From positions 160,001 through 224,000 of the forward strand of contig JBHLOC010000001.1 of NCBI GenBank assembly GCA_048940925.1: a stretch of 64,000 nt of DNA, written 5' to 3'. The notes beneath the pieces are model-generated. The model had not been told where the DNA came from. It worked only from the letters and a program-made list of their open reading frames with translations, and searched no databases. Position numbers and translations under genes: made by a program. The DNA comes from Promethearchaeota archaeon. GTDB taxonomy: Archaea > Asgardarchaeota > Lokiarchaeia > Sigyniarchaeales > SOKP01. Positions 10,304-40,726 of the stretch are shown piece by piece. The stretch's first letter is position 1. Every line of letters begins with the position of its first letter.

Positions 10304-10675
10304 CTAAGACCATGCTACTTTATTGATAAAAATCGACCATTCTAATAAAATCATACCTTCATCGCTAGTATGAGCAATAAGATAATTTCCATTTTTCGTA
10401 ATAGACCCAACGATATTTCCCTTTCCGCCAGTAATATTTTTAGCTGCTAATTGGATTTCATCATTTTTTAAAATAGCAAATCGATAATTCTGAAACATAA
10501 GAGATGATTCTTTTGTTTTCCATGCACTTAATATGGCTTTAGCTTCTTCATTTGATAAAGGAAATTCACCAGATTTAAAAATAATATCTCCTTCTTTATT
10601 TAAAAGAAAAACTTCCTCAACCCCTTCTTGTCTTTTAAGTGAATCGACAAGACTATCAAATCTTTGTTCTTCTAT
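10304..10675 (-). CDS. Profilin-like protein (123 aa, apparent ATA/ATT start)
   Basis: The frame extends 59 codons upstream of the ORF-track ATG (EEQRFDSLVDSL...FLLNKEGDIIFKSG...) to in-frame TGA TAA. The pattern FLLNKEG / YRFAILKND / AAKNITGGKGNIVG resembles Asgard profilins. AAGGTGA Shine-Dalgarno (SD) sequence upstream. Confidence 0.7.
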   Translation of the reverse strand: MEEQRFDSLVDSLKRQEGVEEVFLLNKEGDIIFKSGEFPLSNEEAKAILSAWKTKESSLMFQNYRFAILKNDEIQLAAKNITGGKGNIVGSITKNGNYLIAHTSDEGMILLEWSIFINKVAWS

Positions 10676-10823
10676 AATTTATCACCTTACATAAAAAAAC
10701 TGCTTTTAGGTTTATTGAAAGATAAAAATTTTGTAATTTAAATCTTTTTACACTTTAAATTGATTTTGATTAAAATTGAGAAAAATTTTTTACATTATAG
10801 GGATTATGATAATTACATTTTAA

Positions 10824-13309: not shown

Positions 13310-14302
13310 TTAGTTTAAATATTGAAATACAATTTCGAAATCTGAAAAGTCAAATGGTTTTAAGATAAACCCATCTGCTTTAATTTCGACCATTTTCTTT
13401 TCAACTTCGGAACTAGGAATAGCAGTCAATAAATACACAGGTATGGATTTATATGATTTATGATCTTTTATCAATTTGCAGATCTCATAACCAGAAATAT
13501 CTGGAAGAATGATATCCAGTAAGATTAATTTTGGTAATCCACCACGTAATTCTTCTATTCCTTTTGTGCCACTAACTACACCTTTACACTTATAACCTTT
13601 ACTCTCGAAATAGCTTGTAAGCAATTTAATGGTCGCAAGGTCATCTTCAATGAGGAGAATATCGTATTGAGATTCAGTTTCTTCCACTTTAATGTTGTCC
13701 AAAATATTGATAATTTTACTTTCAAGAAGTAAACTTTGGTCAAAGATGTTTTTTATTGTGGATAGTACTTCCTCATCTAAGTCGTCCTTATAATTTTCTA
13801 AAAGAAGTTGGCTAAAGCCTTTAATAGTTGTTAGTGGTTCTTTTAGCGCATGAGAAATAGTTGAGATGGTTTTTTCATCAATTCTACTTAAACCTCCTCC
13901 CAATATATTAGATTTTTGTTCTATGTAATAATCAACACTGTCTCTAATCAATGCAGAGATTGTAGAATAATCATGGGTTTCTTTAAATTTTTGCCATTCA
14001 GATTTGGTTTCGTCTGATACATAGAGAGATATACGCTCTTTATCTCGGTCATAAATTTTTTCACCCTTTAACCATTTTTTAAATCCTTCAGTAATGGTAC
14101 CACGCCATATAGCATATTTGTCAGTCTGTTCCTCGTATTCTTTCATTAAGTTTTTTGCTTTTTTACTTTCCAAATCTAAATTAGCTATTTCCTCATCTGT
14201 CATACTCGGTCTATCATCATTATTTTCTATAACTTTTTCAGTTTTATTCTTGTCTTTTTTCTCTTCGTCCGGAATTTCTTCTACATCTCTCTTTTGCTTT
14301 AT
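13310..14302 (-). CDS. Response regulator: RHH-like + HisKA + receiver domain (start either ATA 14302 or ATG 14203)
   Basis: RISLYVS..ISALIRDSV (RHH-like), SHALKEPLTTIKG (H-box), ILLIEDD..LLDIILP..KPF (REC); the frame stays open with charged codons up to ATA 14302. Confidence 0.8.
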   Translation of the reverse strand: MKQKRDVEEIPDEEKKDKNKTEKVIENNDDRPSMTDEEIANLDLESKKAKNLMKEYEEQTDKYAIWRGTITEGFKKWLKGEKIYDRDKERISLYVSDETKSEWQKFKETHDYSTISALIRDSVDYYIEQKSNILGGGLSRIDEKTISTISHALKEPLTTIKGFSQLLLENYKDDLDEEVLSTIKNIFDQSLLLESKIINILDNIKVEETESQYDILLIEDDLATIKLLTSYFESKGYKCKGVVSGTKGIEELRGGLPKLILLDIILPDISGYEICKLIKDHKSYKSIPVYLLTAIPSSEVEKKMVEIKADGFILKPFDFSDFEIVFQYLN

Positions 14303-14568: not shown

Positions 14569-15495
14569 TTAATTCTTCTCACTTTTTAAAATATCAAAAA
14601 TAACTTCAAAATCAGAAAAATTAAAAGGTTTTAGAATATACCCATTAGCTTTTGTTTCTTCAAGGTTTTTTTCAACTTCAGAACCTGCTATAGCAGTTAA
14701 GAAGTACACAGGAATATTCGACCATTCTTTATCTGATTTTATAGTTTTACAAATATCATAACCACTTAAATCAGGCAAAATTATATCTAATAATATTAAT
14801 TTAGGAATAGCATGGCCTAATTCTTCTAAACCTTTAGATCCGCTAACAATACCCTTACATTTATAGCCTTTACTGTCAAAGTAACTCGTGATTAAGCGAA
14901 TTGTTGCTAGATCATCCTCAACCAATAACACATCATATTCAGACTCTACCTTAATATTATCTAGGATATTGATTATTTTTGTCTCAAGAAGAACACTTTG
15001 TTCGAAAATATTTTTTACGGTGTCTAATATGTGATCATTCAATTTTTCTTTGTAATTTTCAAGAAGTAATTGTGAATATCCTTTTATTGAAGTTAATGGT
15101 TCTTTTAAAGTATGAGAAATATTAGAAATCGTCTGTTTATTTAATTCCTTCAGAGTGTAATTATTTTCCATTGATTTACTTTGGATGAAGGCTTCCACTG
15201 ATTGCCTTATTAATTTAGAAATCGTCAAAGAACCATTATTTTTAGTAAAATTTAGCCATTTAGTTTTAGTATCTTCAGAAACATATAAAGAGATTCGTTC
15301 TTTGTCTCGATGGTATATTTTCTCTCCTTTTTGCCATTTTTTATAACCTTCTGTCACTACGCCTCGCCATACTGAATATCTTCCGGTTTCTTTTTCATAT
15401 TTTTTCATTTCTTCAGATTTTTCAATGGAACTATTATCAATTTTGATTAGTTCTTTATCATCTGAGTCTTCTTCGCTATCCTTTGATTTTTCCAC
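14569..15495 (-). CDS. Response regulator paralog: RHH-like + HisKA + receiver domain
   Basis: Same architecture and strong similarity to the adjacent gene; start uncertain (GTG). Confidence 0.8.
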   Translation of the reverse strand: MEKSKDSEEDSDDKELIKIDNSSIEKSEEMKKYEKETGRYSVWRGVVTEGYKKWQKGEKIYHRDKERISLYVSEDTKTKWLNFTKNNGSLTISKLIRQSVEAFIQSKSMENNYTLKELNKQTISNISHTLKEPLTSIKGYSQLLLENYKEKLNDHILDTVKNIFEQSVLLETKIINILDNIKVESEYDVLLVEDDLATIRLITSYFDSKGYKCKGIVSGSKGLEELGHAIPKLILLDIILPDLSGYDICKTIKSDKEWSNIPVYFLTAIAGSEVEKNLEETKANGYILKPFNFSDFEVIFDILKSEKN

Positions 15496-16136
15496 AGATT
15501 TTTTTGGAGTAGGTATTTTTTGACCACTAATTTTAGATCTAAATTTTTTGTAAAAAAATAATATAAGTATTACTATTTAACGTTTTTTTATTATACAAAT
15601 TTTGAGGGATGACCATAAGAAAAATATTTTAGTTCAAAAAAGTCGTTTATAACATTATGAAAATACTTTTTGTACACAAAATTATTATGAGGGGAATATA
15701 AAATTTAGTAAAAAATTATTTGTCCCTAATTTTAGACCTTTTTGTAGAGTGATTTTTATTTTAAACTGAATAGTATTTTAATTTCGACAAAAGTAAGATA
15801 CAATTAAGAATTTTTACAACAATTTATATAATGTCTATATTATATGATTTCAATAATGAGTCTTCAATAAATTTTTACAATAAAACTTATAACAAAAAAT
15901 TGTATTTCAAAAAAAACGGATAACAAATTGATTTTATCTAGATGTTTTTTTATACAAAAAGCAACATTTATATATCTGAGTCACCTATTTTGTTATAACG
16001 AAGAGACTTTTTTCACACAAATATCTGATGGTTCAAAAAAAAGATAAATTTGTGTGTAAAAAATTAAGCAAAAATATGGAATTCTTGTATGTAAATCAAG
16101 AATTATAATATAAGATTTGGGATAAGGTAAGGGTTA

Positions 16137-35184: not shown

Positions 35185-36177
35185 ATGGTAAAATGTGCTC
35201 ATTGTGGAGATGATATTATTGGAGAACCATTTTATTGCAGTGATTGTGGACAAAATTATTGTTCATTTCATAAAGAACCTATAAATCATGAGTGTAAATT
35301 TGTAAAGTCAAGATTTAGGACTCAAGAAATGCAATCAACTGTACCTTCTTATATAAACGTTTCACAGATTCCCTATAATTCACAAGAACGAGGAGCTCAA
35401 CAACAACCGTCGACCAGTAATATAAGAGGAACAACTGATGGGACTTACACATGGTATCGTCAGGAAGCTCAAGTCCCTGAAAATGCGTTTGATCCTGATT
35501 CAGGTATCAAATTTAAGGGAATTTTATTCCCTCATACTTCAGAATTTTTGCATTTTATAATTGGGGTTTCTCTGATTTTTACTATAGGCTTTTTAAATTT
35601 TTATCCTAATCTCATTAATACTGGCTATGAGTGGGGAATATTCATGTTAGCAGGTTTTTACGCTACAGCGTTTCTTTTTCATGAATTTGGGCATAGACAG
35701 GTAGCAATTCATTTTGACCTTCAAACTAAATTTCGATTATTAACTTTTGGGATGATTTTAACTGTTTTTGGTATTATAACTGGTTTATATGGTTTAGTGG
35801 TTGGTGGTGCCGCATTACCTACATTAGCTCTTCCCGGTGCTGTTGTAGTTTTAGGGTTAGATAAGGTAGATAGAACAACCGGTTTATGTAAAGCAGCAGG
35901 ACCTACTATCAATCTAGTTTATGGTACTATACTTCTGATAGCATCATTTTTGATTCCAACTCAATTATATCCGCTGAATATGTTTGTTGGGTATGCTGCG
36001 AATTTGAATTATATACTGGGAGCATTCAATATGATTCCATTAGGAATCCTAGACGGTCAAAATATTTGGAAATGGAATAAAAAAGTCTATCTCCTATTGA
36101 TTGGATTACTTTTAATCTTACTGATTGTTACATTTATTTTTATTTACGCTCCAATTGAAAGTAATCCCTATTTGTAA
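35185..36177 (+). CDS. AN1-type Zn finger + M50 (site-2) metalloprotease
   Basis: CAHC..CSDC..CSFH..HEC; HEFGH; AAGP; FNMIP..LDG. Confidence 0.88.
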   Translation: MVKCAHCGDDIIGEPFYCSDCGQNYCSFHKEPINHECKFVKSRFRTQEMQSTVPSYINVSQIPYNSQERGAQQQPSTSNIRGTTDGTYTWYRQEAQVPENAFDPDSGIKFKGILFPHTSEFLHFIIGVSLIFTIGFLNFYPNLINTGYEWGIFMLAGFYATAFLFHEFGHRQVAIHFDLQTKFRLLTFGMILTVFGIITGLYGLVVGGAALPTLALPGAVVVLGLDKVDRTTGLCKAAGPTINLVYGTILLIASFLIPTQLYPLNMFVGYAANLNYILGAFNMIPLGILDGQNIWKWNKKVYLLLIGLLLILLIVTFIFIYAPIESNPYL

Positions 36178-36360
36178 ATATGAATTTACATAGTCAATTA
36201 ATTTTTATATATGTTTCTTAGAAAAGAAATCTTACAAGTAGAAGAAAAATAGTGGTAAAAATTATGAAGGATAATAATTTAAAATTATTATATTCTTAAA
36301 TTTTATATAAATTTAATAACAAACTGTTCAACTAATAAAAGCATTATTTGGTGATTTAAA

Positions 36361-37311
36361 GTAACTTATTGTGAATTCTGTGGTGAATTAATCGGTTATC
36401 TTCCGTTCACATGTAAATATTGTGGGGGGACTTTTTGTAAAAAACACAGATTACCTGAGAATCATGATTGTTCTTTTGAATTGAAACATGTCCCAATCTC
36501 AACACCGGGTTCAAAAGAAACTCGTCGACGTTATCAAGATGCAGTTATAGAAAAACCAATTCCTAGAGGATATTTAGAAAAAGGTCCAAAATCATTAAAA
36601 AAGTATTTAAAAAGACAAAATAGACAAAGAAGAGAAGCAACGCGAAGTTATCAAGCTTATAAAAGACCTTATAAAAAAAAGATACAATACCGAGGTACTA
36701 AAACCTTATTTTTGATGATTTCATTATTCTCAATTGTTGCTTTGTTTTTTGCTTCTACCCCATTAGATAATTATATTTATTTAAGTCTTAATGGTCTTAT
36801 TTATGAATATACATTCCATACTCTATTTACAGCACTTTTCATTAGTGCTAAAGATATTTTTGGGATATTCATTTTGTTTATCATGTTGTATATTTTATAT
36901 TTTATGACAAGAACTATCGAATTAAGCCTTGGTACAAAATTTTTAATAAAGTTATACTTAATATCTTGTTTATTTACAGCACTATTTTATTTCTTGTTAA
37001 GAATCTCATTAGTTTCTCTTTATCCGTTAGAAATTTACTCAATTTCAGTAGGATTGGCTTGGGGTGGAATACTTGGTTTGATATCTTATTCTCTCTTTCC
37101 AATAATGAACAAGGAAATTACTGCTTTAATGTATTTTCTTCCAATTAGAATGAAAGGAAGATCTTTTTTGCTAATCATTATATTGTTTAGATTTTTAGGA
37201 TTAATCTTTGTATTTTATTATGGATTATATTATATCCTATATTCTTTGCCAGATTTAGGAGGGATTCTTGGAGCCTATATAATATATAAATACCAATTTA
37301 AACGTCGATGA
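36361..37311 (+). CDS. AN1-type Zn finger + rhomboid-like (probably inactive) membrane protein; apparent GTA start
   Basis: The frame upstream of the ORF-track start reads [37 protein letters not shown]; the TM region has IELSLG, GLAWGG and DLGG. Confidence 0.75.
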
Positions 37312-38582: not shown

Positions 38583-39089
38583 TTATTCTTTAAATATAGA
38601 GATCAAATTTTTCAGCTTTATTTCTTTAATAATATTCTTCATAGTAGCTTTGCCTAGGGGTGCTACTTTTATTATTCCTAAATCTTCAAATTTTCTTAGA
38701 TAATCATTGTCAAGTAAGAATTGTATATCAGTATCCCAAACATTGGCAAAGATTTCTTTTAAATCTTCAATTTTCATATTATCATCAAGTTCTTTACTGA
38801 AAGCAACTATCAAGGCTAAAACACCATATTGAGATGGTGTAACATCATCATCTTTACCCTCGGAAGTTAAAATATAAAAAGTTTGTTCGAGAAATTTAGT
38901 TTTAATTAGTTCAAACCCAATACTTTTCAAATTCACATAGACTTCACTCATTACTTGTTCAAAATTCAATTCTTTACTTAAATTCTTAAGATCTTCTTCT
39001 CTTATAATCTTTTGAGGATTAGTTAAAATCATTTTGGTAATAGTTTTTATAATTTCTTTATTTTCTTTTAACGCCATTATTAGTATCAT
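38583..39089 (-). CDS. Tandem winged-helix, kite (Nse1/Nse3-MAGE/ScpB)-like protein
   Basis: FEQVMSEVYVNLKSIGFEL...FYILTS...GVLALIVA...LLDNDYL resembles the kite consensus; adjacent to the SMC-like gene. Confidence 0.5.
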   Translation of the reverse strand: MILIMALKENKEIIKTITKMILTNPQKIIREEDLKNLSKELNFEQVMSEVYVNLKSIGFELIKTKFLEQTFYILTSEGKDDDVTPSQYGVLALIVAFSKELDDNMKIEDLKEIFANVWDTDIQFLLDNDYLRKFEDLGIIKVAPLGKATMKNIIKEIKLKNLISIFKE

Positions 39090-40726
39090 CCATTTTCTTG
39101 AATCTTTATTATTTTTAAGTATTTTATTTCTTTTTTCATTTCTAGATTTGAAAGAATAAATATTAAATTAACAGTAGAAAGATTTTCATCCTTTTCAAAG
39201 AGAGGTAAGATTTTTCTGATTGTCCTAAAAATCGATCCTGCTTTATTGTAAATACTTGGGATAAATAAATTTGAAAAGATAATATTGTTATTTTTAACTT
39301 GGAGTTCTATTGAAATATAATATGTAATAATAAAAAATATCTTCTCAGGTGTAGTTAATTCATTAAAAGTAATTTTCTCCCGATTATTTCGAACAAATCC
39401 GATTTTTATTAAATAGGTCTTATTATCATTGCTTAAGTGAATTCTAAAATTTGATTTTAAATTAATTTCTTGTAAGAATTTGTTAATTAATGATTCAAGT
39501 TCCTCAATCTTAGATTCTAATCTTTGATAACATTCACATATTTCTGTAATCTGCTCTAAATTTTTTTCTATTTTAATTTCACTCTTATGAATTTTCAAGT
39601 TATTAATAATATCATCTAATTTTTTCTTTATTCTTGATAAATCTTCTGGATTATGAATATCATATAGGTCTTCTGGAATTAGAATTGTTTTCAATTCATC
39701 ATTAGTTTTTTTAATGTCATCTTCGATGTTATGTTTCGATCTTATTGATTTTAAATCAATTCCATCAAAATCTTCATGAAAACTATTCTTATTTGCCAGA
39801 ATATTTTCTTTAAGTTCAAGTTGTAATTTTTCAACTCTCTCTTCATCTGTTTTAATAATACTGTTGAGCTTTTCATAATCTCGTTTATATACTTCATAAA
39901 GAGGGTTAAATTCGTTGTATTTTAATTTAGTTTCGCCTATTTTTTGATTAACATTATTAATTTCACTTTGTATCTCTTTAGCTTTCTTCTGAAAAACCCT
40001 TATTTTTTGAGCATTCGTTAGATTTTCATCAATTTCAGGAATTATATTAGATTCTTCTTGCTCTTTTATAGGAGTTCCAGACATTTCACGTGTTATTCTA
40101 TTAATTTGACTGAAAAATTCTTTTTTTTGATTTGTTAAATCTTTAACTTTTAACTCGTACTTTTTGATATTGTTATTAATCTGGTCAATTTGATTCTTTC
40201 GTTGAAGATAATCTTCTTCAAGATATTTCAAGTTCTTTTTATTCTCATTTATAGAATCATTTAACTTATATAGTAAATCAGAAATTGCAGTTATATCACT
40301 TACTTTTCTATACTCTTCCGTAATTTCTAATTCTTTTAAAAAATTTTCCTTTTTTTTTAAAAGAAAGTTAAATCTGAGAAGCAATATAATTGACTCTATA
40401 ATTTTACTGTACTGTGAGATCATTGCAATGTTTTTTTCCATAAGATCATGAAATTCATTGATAAGGCTTATCAATGTTAAGCCTTTTTCAAATAGTTCAG
40501 AATCTTCTAATCGCTCTACATAGATCTTAGTTAATTTTTTTAATGGGATTAAATCAATGTCCTCAAGGATTTCGGAGAAGACTTCATTTTTGAGATAATC
40601 TACCATGTTCTTTTTAAATCTTCCTTTTATTACTGTATATCTATCTTGAATTGAAATTTCCGTAGAACCAATGGAAAATTTAAAATAATCTTCTGTAATC
40701 TTAAAACCCTTTAATTGATAATTTAG
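39086..40726 (-). CDS. SMC/Rad50-like coiled-coil protein with degenerate ABC head (start probably upstream of ATG 40606, CTA 40726 proposed)
   Basis: N-terminal YQLKGFKI..FKFSIGSTEISI..YTVIKG, long coiled coil, C-terminal ELTTPEK and IIFSN at the signature and Walker B positions. Confidence 0.55.
   Translation of the reverse strand, partial: LNYQLKGFKITEDYFKFSIGSTEISIQDRYTVIKGRFKKNMVDYLKNEVFSEILEDIDLIPLKKLTKIYVERLEDSELFEKGLTLISLINEFHDLMEKNIAMISQYSKIIESIILLLRFNFLLKKKENFLKELEITEEYRKVSDITAISDLLYKLNDSINENKKNLKYLEEDYLQRKNQIDQINNNIKKYELKVKDLTNQKKEFFSQINRITREMSGTPIKEQEESNIIPEIDENLTNAQKIRVFQKKAKEIQSEINNVNQKIGETKLKYNEFNPLYEVYKRDYEKLNSIIKTDEERVEKLQLELKENILANKNSFHEDFDGIDLKSIRSKHNIEDDIKKTNDELKTILIPEDLYDIHNPEDLSRIKKKLDDIINNLKIHKSEIKIEKNLEQITEICECYQRLESKIEELESLINKFLQEINLKSNFRIHLSNDNKTYLIKIGFVRNNREKITFNELTTPEKIFFIITYYISIELQVKNNNIIFSNLFIPSIYNKAGSIFRTIRKILPLFEKDENLSTVNLIFILSNLEMKKEIKYLKIIKIQENG

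Follow-up and report, generated by a model that had tools for sequence, protein, structure and literature searches.

The window analysed here, a stretch of 64,000 nucleotides (G000:C40:160001-224000), belongs to the genome of an uncultured Asgard archaeon of the Promethearchaeota, whose older name is Lokiarchaeota. The genome is a 90-contig MAG of 4.82 Mb with 29.6% GC and an estimated contamination of 8.4%. Four genes of the window are considered; they encode a membrane protein with an N-terminal AN1 zinc finger, a profilin, a regulator with HisKA and receiver domains, and a coiled-coil protein of 537 aa. In the original prediction, made from the sequence of the window, the coding-like N-termini of these genes were described as bounded by an in-frame stop with no ATG, GTG or TTG, and initiation was proposed at codons of the form NUA (GTA 36361, ATA 10675, ATA 14302 and CTA 40726), as a sign of relaxed third-position recognition of the start codon in this lineage. 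The features of the four genes, together with those of two translation factors and of the initiator tRNA encoded elsewhere in the genome, are collected in Table 1.

Table 1. Positions of genes, initiation codons and Shine-Dalgarno (SD) sequences; coordinates are those of the window unless a contig is given
Feature	Position	Strand	Basis or remark
Tandem neighbour of the AN1 gene, ATG-started: AN1 finger and weak M50-like membrane domain	35185..36177	+	Pfam; first Cys at codon 4
SD sequence GGTGA, AN1 gene	36350..36354	+	complementary to the 16S rRNA 3' end; GGTGA or a close variant with the same 6-nt spacer in most of the 30 orthologues of the genus
GTA, most likely initiation codon of the AN1 gene, double near-cognate of AUG	36361..36363	+	orthologue alignment; in-frame TGA 36352 three codons upstream
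CDS, N-terminal AN1 zinc finger and multi-pass membrane domain	36361..37311	+	Pfam
SD sequence AGGTGA, profilin	10682..10687	-	present solely in ATA-bearing genomes
ATA, initiation codon of profilin	10673..10675	-	aligns with orthologue Met1 ATG; TAA two codons upstream
Profilin CDS, 123 aa	10304..10675	-	Pfam PF00235, E 3.8e-6, above cut-off, residues 6-104
HisKA and receiver regulator ORF, stop to stop	13310..14302	-	Pfam Response_reg and HisKA
ATA, proposed start of the regulator, unproven	14300..14302	-	no SD; G018 has AGC AAT there
ATT, alternative candidate start common to G018	14273..14275	-	inference only
ATG, first canonical codon of the regulator	14201..14203	-	33 codons downstream of ATA 14302
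CTA, earlier proposal for the coiled-coil gene, rejected as start	40724..40726	-	variable aligned codon
Weak SD-like AAGGGT before ATT 40699	40706..40711	-	AAGGT/AAGTG/AGGGT kept about 7 nt upstream in orthologues
ATT, conserved initiation codon of the 537-aa coiled-coil gene	40697..40699	-	orthologue alignment
Coiled-coil protein CDS	39086..40699	-	ORF
aIF1 copies	G000:C31:2212-2526 and G000:C58:42821-43135		SUI1
Initiator tRNA gene, intron-containing	G000:C31:30449-30580	-	aragorn

Start sites of the four genes in the window

The arrangement described for the AN1 gene is confirmed: GGTGA is followed after 6 nt by GTA 36361, the first Cys stands at codon 4 as in the tandem neighbour at 35185, and no ATG, GTG or TTG occurs before TTG 36481. 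The zf-AN1 match of Pfam (E 4e-12) starts at residue 4 of the ORF read from GTA 36361 and, as the first canonical codon is TTG 36481, the AN1 zinc ligands lie upstream of every canonical start. Moreover, GTA 36361 occupies the orthologous start position. In fact, among 30 congeneric orthologues the aligned codon, in most of them 6 nt behind GGTGA or a close variant, is CTG in 19, TTG in five and GTG in four, making 28 congeners, while in the rest it is GTA, which is confined to this genome and its sister G018. The gene is under purifying selection, with a dN/dS of 0.13 at a dS of 0.49 between these two carriers, and is therefore functional although it carries GTA. From the in-frame TGA to the first zinc-ligand Cys no other near-cognate codon is found. 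An internal GGTGA, 4 nt before ATC 36391, was considered as a second candidate site and rejected, because a start there would remove the conserved CxxC; this GGTGA simply represents Gly-Glu codons that are variable in orthologues.

The gene had been labelled AN1-rhomboid, a name of which only the first part can be kept. The Rhomboid match (Pfam E 0.022, 15.4 bits) lies under the curated cut-off of 22.6, and zf-AN1 alone is secure. In the tandem pair 35185-37311 (+) the Peptidase_M50 and Rhomboid matches are both below the Pfam cut-offs; the two products look like AN1-tethered intramembrane protease-like proteins.

For profilin, the GGTGA, the 6-nt spacer and the ATA 10675 that had been reported are present, and the ATA is found opposite the Met1 ATG of 28 congeners. 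Among 77 species-level genomes the profilin start is ATG in 73, ATA in two, GTG in one and TTG in one. Every ATA carrier has AGGTGA at 6 nt, and ATG carriers have GATGGAG or a similar sequence, which suggests that a stronger SD offsets the weaker ATA codon. ATT 10678, which is only 3 nt from the SD, was discarded in favour of ATA 10675, the codon aligned with the orthologous ATG. The first canonical start, ATG 10498, lies 59 codons into the 123-residue protein. An Asgard profilin, 71% identical, is also carried by the record L311 (DATKTW010000106.1), titled 'Candidatus Nanopelagicaceae bacterium', and several near-identical relatives with JBHL* accessions bear titles naming Hermod-, Thor-, Odin- or Hodarchaeota; such records look mislabelled or mis-binned.

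The coiled-coil gene was assigned a different start. The overlap of CTA 40726 with the upstream TAA is real and the initiation codon is still non-canonical, as had been proposed, but it is ATT 40699 that is conserved. With the conserved SIG motif as anchor, an alignment of 30 orthologues shows ATT at this position in 27 of them and ATC in two, and the thirtieth orthologue has ATT two codons upstream through an indel. As in the AN1 and profilin genes, no canonical codon would preserve the conserved N-terminus. In-frame stops are found 0-4 codons upstream of the aligned ATT in about one third of the orthologues. The codon aligned to CTA 40726 varies instead among CTA, ATA, TTA, ATG and TAA, and in many orthologues it is cut off from the gene by in-frame stops. 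The label 'SMC-like' given to this gene is likewise unsupported: no Pfam family, including the SMC/Rad50 N-terminal ATPase domain, matches the 537-aa product at E < 0.1.

In the HisKA and receiver regulator the TAA followed by ATA 14302 is present, but this ATA is unproven as a start, being absent in G018 and having no SD, and a canonical ATG 14203 exists. A comparison with G018 over the 29 codons upstream of ATG 14203 gives eight synonymous and seven non-synonymous changes, with a pN/pS of 0.18 and a binomial p of 0.0016 against neutrality; on this evidence the regulator probably starts upstream of ATG 14203, whose Met is replaced by Leu, Ile or Phe in several orthologues. The N-terminal extension is thus probably translated, from a non-canonical candidate codon. 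A tandem paralogue with HisKA and receiver domains (14569-15576, minus strand; 61% identical to the 13310-14302 gene) has as its first canonical start GTG 15495, 27 codons after the stop, and carries a 'KIS' motif found near the N-terminus of orthologues.

Codons behind Shine-Dalgarno sites in the whole genome

Starts were counted throughout the genome in a heuristic set of about 3,950 non-overlapping stop-to-stop ORFs of at least 100 codons, built with no trained gene caller. An SD match was defined as at least 5 nt of GGAGGTGA at the 5' edge of an ORF. This sequence is complementary to the 3' end of the 16S rRNA, identified on the contig of the window; the 3' end, GGATCACCTCCT, lies on the minus strand in the last approximately 150 bases of G000:C40 and is the source of the anti-SD. 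An unconstrained EM start model, in which all 61 codons were allowed, collapsed onto AAA, the usual second codon, and was dropped; model-free counts anchored on the SD were used instead.

The 685 SD matches at ORF edges comprise 436 with an in-frame ATG, GTG or TTG at 3-13 nt and 249 without. The canonical starts are ATG in 299 cases, TTG in 107 and GTG in 30, in agreement with the frequent use of TTG noticed in the window. At the 249 sites without a canonical start, the codons at 5-8 nt include ATT (61 observed against 18 expected), ATA (53 against 12), ATC (16 against 4.7), ACG (9 against 1.1) and CTG (4 against 0.9). Taken jointly, ATA, ATT, ATC and ACG amount to 139 occurrences where 36 are expected, an enrichment of 3-8 fold with p from 1e-5 to 1e-19 per codon. 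No enrichment at the same spacing is seen for GTA (4 against 6.2), CTA (2 against 3.7) or TTA (10 against 16.6), and the profile of these three codons is flat over the SD spacers. AAA, AAT, TTA, TAT and TTT, which are equally AT-rich, are depleted at 5-8 nt behind the SD.

The signal of ATA, ATT, ATC and ACG (ATH/ACG) depends on spacing and on the SD sequence. These codons make up 57% of all codons at a spacer of 5 nt, 73% at 6 nt and 33% at 7 nt, and 7-21% at 8-13 nt, with a peak at 5-7 nt that resembles the spacing of canonical starts; their share is 54% behind GGTGA and 17% behind scrambled G-rich 5-mers. With chance subtracted, an AUH or ACG start is found in about 19% of SD-led genes, which is a rough fraction. 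An SD of at least 5 nt with AUH or ACG 5-7 nt behind it occurs in no fewer than 126 genes (about 3%), and the true share of genes with near-cognate starts may be several percent above this figure. Conserved N-termini, such as P-loops, GxGxxG motifs and those of uS10, ThiF and alcohol dehydrogenase, begin directly after non-canonical codons.

A set of ORFs selected independently of the SD was also analysed. It contains 225 ORFs with a coding-like body and at least 25 codons ahead of the first canonical start, the stretch before that start being free of overlap with other ORFs. Roughly 62% of the stretches were scored as coding. Among the 120 clearest, an SD of at least 5 nt precedes a candidate codon, mostly ATA, ATT, ATC or ACG, in 47%; at confident ATG starts the corresponding value is 9.5%. 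An upstream ORF on the same strand is found within 40 nt of 27% of the near-cognate SD-led starts and of 49% of the canonical ones (Fisher p 4e-5); being rarer inside operons, the near-cognate starts are not due to translational coupling. Applied to relatives, the same SD-anchored count puts near-cognate starts at 24% for a congener, of which 400 kb were covered, and, with small numbers in both cases, at 6% for a genome from a sister family (31% GC; 4 found where 1.4 were expected) and at 10% for a family with 53% GC. AT-richness alone is therefore no source of the signal, as the sister family with 31% GC gives only 4 against 1.4.

The proposal of a class of NUA start codons does not survive these counts, since GTA, CTA and TTA are unenriched at SD spacing and CTA 40726 is refuted by its orthologues. 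Relaxed recognition of the third position holds genome-wide, with AUA, AUU and AUC as the main codons, but it does not cover ACG and CTG, which depart from AUG at the second and first position, respectively. The rule to which the sequences point is one mismatch to AUG at an SD-fixed site, not any base followed by UA, with GTA as the single conserved exception.

The exception calls for separate consideration, as the GTA start is based on one gene in two sister species. GUA might remain undecoded, with very small amounts of the AN1 protein arising from a different unusual codon nearby or in some unknown way, or the gene might have lost its start recently and be drifting towards loss. The lack of genome-wide enrichment of GTA, its absence as a start from all the NCBI genetic-code tables checked and its two mismatches to the CAU anticodon speak for such an explanation. 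We consider it rather unlikely, because two species keep GTA together with its SD and 6-nt spacer in spite of a dS of 0.49 and under a dN/dS of 0.13, and neither of the conceivable substitutes is at hand: the interval between the TGA and the first zinc-ligand Cys offers no other near-cognate codon, and ATC 36391 would sacrifice the CxxC.

uS10, aIF1 and the initiator tRNA

Two genes of the translation apparatus show the same type of start throughout the genus. In uS10 an SD (GGTGA in 14 cases, GGTGG in one) is followed after 6-7 nt by ATA in all 15 congeners; in the other families of the order the start of this gene is mostly ATG or GTG, with ATT in G024. The initiation factor aIF1 (SUI1, PF01253) is encoded by two copies, 62% identical, each opening with ATT AAA. 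The ATT is invariant in 16 congeners, where it comes after TGATAA and two variable codons, and it is replaced by ATA in another genus and by TTG or ATG in others. Read from this ATT, the N-terminus matches that of the solved M. jannaschii aIF1 to within two residues. In the congener G007 the second aIF1 copy is broken by two TAA stops.

A comparison of the codons aligned to Met1, proposed earlier as a check, was carried out for the four genes of the window, uS10 and aIF1, and non-canonical codons were found at the orthologous starts of profilin, the AN1 gene, the coiled-coil gene, uS10 and aIF1. aIF1 and the initiator tRNA had been named as components to inspect. What emerged for aIF1 concerns its own start codon, ATT in 16 congeners; its alignment to the solved aIF1 revealed no interpretable residue change. 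The initiator tRNA is ordinary, with the anticodon CAU, the pair A1:U72 and three G-C pairs in the anticodon stem. Aragorn predicts 34 tRNAs in the genome with the intron option and 12 without it, an incomplete inventory in which a tRNA-Sec (tca) is present.

The ATA starts could in principle also go back to an altered genetic code, such as the mitochondrial reading of AUA as Met, or to a tRNA dedicated to them. Mitochondrial tables do list ATA, ATT and ATC as starts, and, as the detection of tRNAs is incomplete with 34 found, there is some room for an extra initiator-like tRNA. Several observations nevertheless make this explanation scarcely credible: ATA accounts for 3.7% of internal codons and ATG for 1.9%; internal ATA aligns with the Ile codons ATT and ATC in orthologues, for instance in uS10; four different codons are involved, which is beyond one tRNA; and the Met tRNAs among the 34 have CAU only, the initiator carrying standard identity elements.

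The conservation of uS10 and aIF1 also bears on the possibility that the odd codons arose through errors of sequencing or assembly, or belong to pseudogenes with a lost start. A MAG in 90 contigs with 8.4% estimated contamination leaves some room for errors of this kind. Yet the codons recur in independent assemblies (ATA in 15 for uS10, ATT in 16 for aIF1, and GTA and the profilin ATA in two or three species each), essential genes are among those affected, the GTA gene shows a dN/dS of 0.13, and errors are unlikely to cluster 5-7 nt behind an SD. We regard this possibility as extremely improbable.

It could also be argued that initiation takes place only at the next downstream ATG, GTG or TTG, the upstream N-termini being an untranslated open leader. 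Each gene does possess some downstream canonical codon, and in the regulator most of the conserved sequence lies behind ATG 14203. Such starts would however deprive the AN1 protein (TTG 36481) of its first zinc ligands or of the entire finger, profilin of 59 of its 123 residues, uS10 and aIF1 of conserved N-terminal parts, and other proteins of P-loops and Rossmann motifs. In addition, the codons upstream vary synonymously and the residues that they encode are conserved, and the enrichment of ATH and ACG exactly at SD spacing would find no explanation. Initiation restricted to downstream codons is for these reasons very unlikely.

Proposed mechanism

Taken together, near-cognate initiation positioned by the SD and carried out by the ordinary initiator tRNA is, in our view, highly probable for this genus of Promethearchaeota, together with the assignments made in the window. 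According to the model, pairing of GGAGGUGA with the 16S rRNA 3' end would set the P site of the small subunit 5-7 nt downstream, and there the CAU initiator tRNA would accept AUA, AUU, AUC, ACG and CUG beside GUG and UUG. The sequences show the enrichment of codons at SD spacing, the orthology of the start positions, their conservation among species and purifying selection; decoding by Met-tRNAi and the efficiency of each codon are inferred. In the window, profilin would start at ATA 10675, the coiled-coil gene at ATT 40699 and the AN1 gene at GTA 36361, and the HisKA and receiver gene probably at some ATH codon. GUA would combine a G.U pair at position 1, as in GUG, with an A.C pair at position 3, as in AUA, each of which is tolerated singly.

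The stringency of the process is presumably set by aIF1, and the ATT start of aIF1 itself throughout the genus suggests a feedback like that of infC. With moderate confidence we propose that GUA is a working start, and that the SD and a self-limiting aIF1 produce a lineage-wide state of low stringency in which the position of a codon counts more than its identity.

These results have consequences for annotation. Gene finders restricted to ATG, GTG and TTG will truncate or overlook a few percent of the proteins of these Asgard archaea; among them is the eukaryotic signature protein profilin, of which a standard annotation would omit the N-terminal half, and such mis-annotation bears on structural and evolutionary work on Asgard proteins. 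The lineage is also a natural system for the study of start-codon fidelity, as a ribosomal protein and aIF1, the homologue of eIF1, are involved and, among prokaryotes, its initiation machinery comes closest to that of eukaryotes. The GTA start gives an idea of how far such tolerance may go and, if the proposal is true, a low-stringency regime operates in close prokaryotic relatives of eukaryotes.

Comparison with known systems

In E. coli, infC, which encodes IF3, and pcnB start at the near-cognate codons AUU or AUA behind an SD. In bacterial infC the gene of a fidelity factor itself carries a weak AUU start, in a feedback arrangement. Both the near-cognate codon at an SD-fixed start and the weak codon in the gene of a fidelity factor (AUU in infC, ATT in aIF1) have their parallel in the genome studied here, where decoding by a normal initiator tRNA would be shared as well. 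The differences concern scale and the factor involved: a couple of genes in E. coli are set against about one in five SD-led genes here, at least about 100, including uS10 and profilin, and the factor is aIF1, of the eIF1 family, rather than IF3, its autoregulation being putative. The degenerate triplets AUU and AUA have been studied (PMC5499595).

Near-cognate initiation in eukaryotes is policed by eIF1 (PMC4705826, PMC5666671), and in Sulfolobus aIF1 disfavours non-canonical starts, according to work cited in PMC6237735. The codon set of the eukaryotic process (AUA, AUU, AUC, ACG, CUG, GUG and UUG) and a homologous proofreading factor are in common with the present case. Here, however, the codon would be positioned by the SD and not by scanning and Kozak context, and it opens the main ORFs of housekeeping genes, whereas in eukaryotes mostly uORFs and extensions are concerned. 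NCBI table 11 and the mitochondrial tables list ATA, ATT, ATC and CTG as possible starts; ACG is absent from table 11, and the frequency observed here is far above that of the usual table 11 organisms.

Our literature search found no lineage-wide description of such starts, and returned just one case, a 'rare ATT start codon' put forward for the tubulin AtubA in a MAG of the Kariarchaeaceae, Heimdallarchaeia (PMC13394414). There too an Asgard gene had been deposited too short, and an upstream ATT at a plausible distance from a ribosome binding site restores the N-terminus; it is one rare case in another class, presented with no genome- or lineage-wide claim. The present case departs from known near-cognate initiation in its scale, in its dependence on the SD in an archaeon, in reaching uS10 and aIF1, and in the GTA codon. 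Specific to this analysis are the GTA start, the rejection of an NUA class, the corrected start of the coiled-coil gene and the link between the ATA of profilin and a gained SD.
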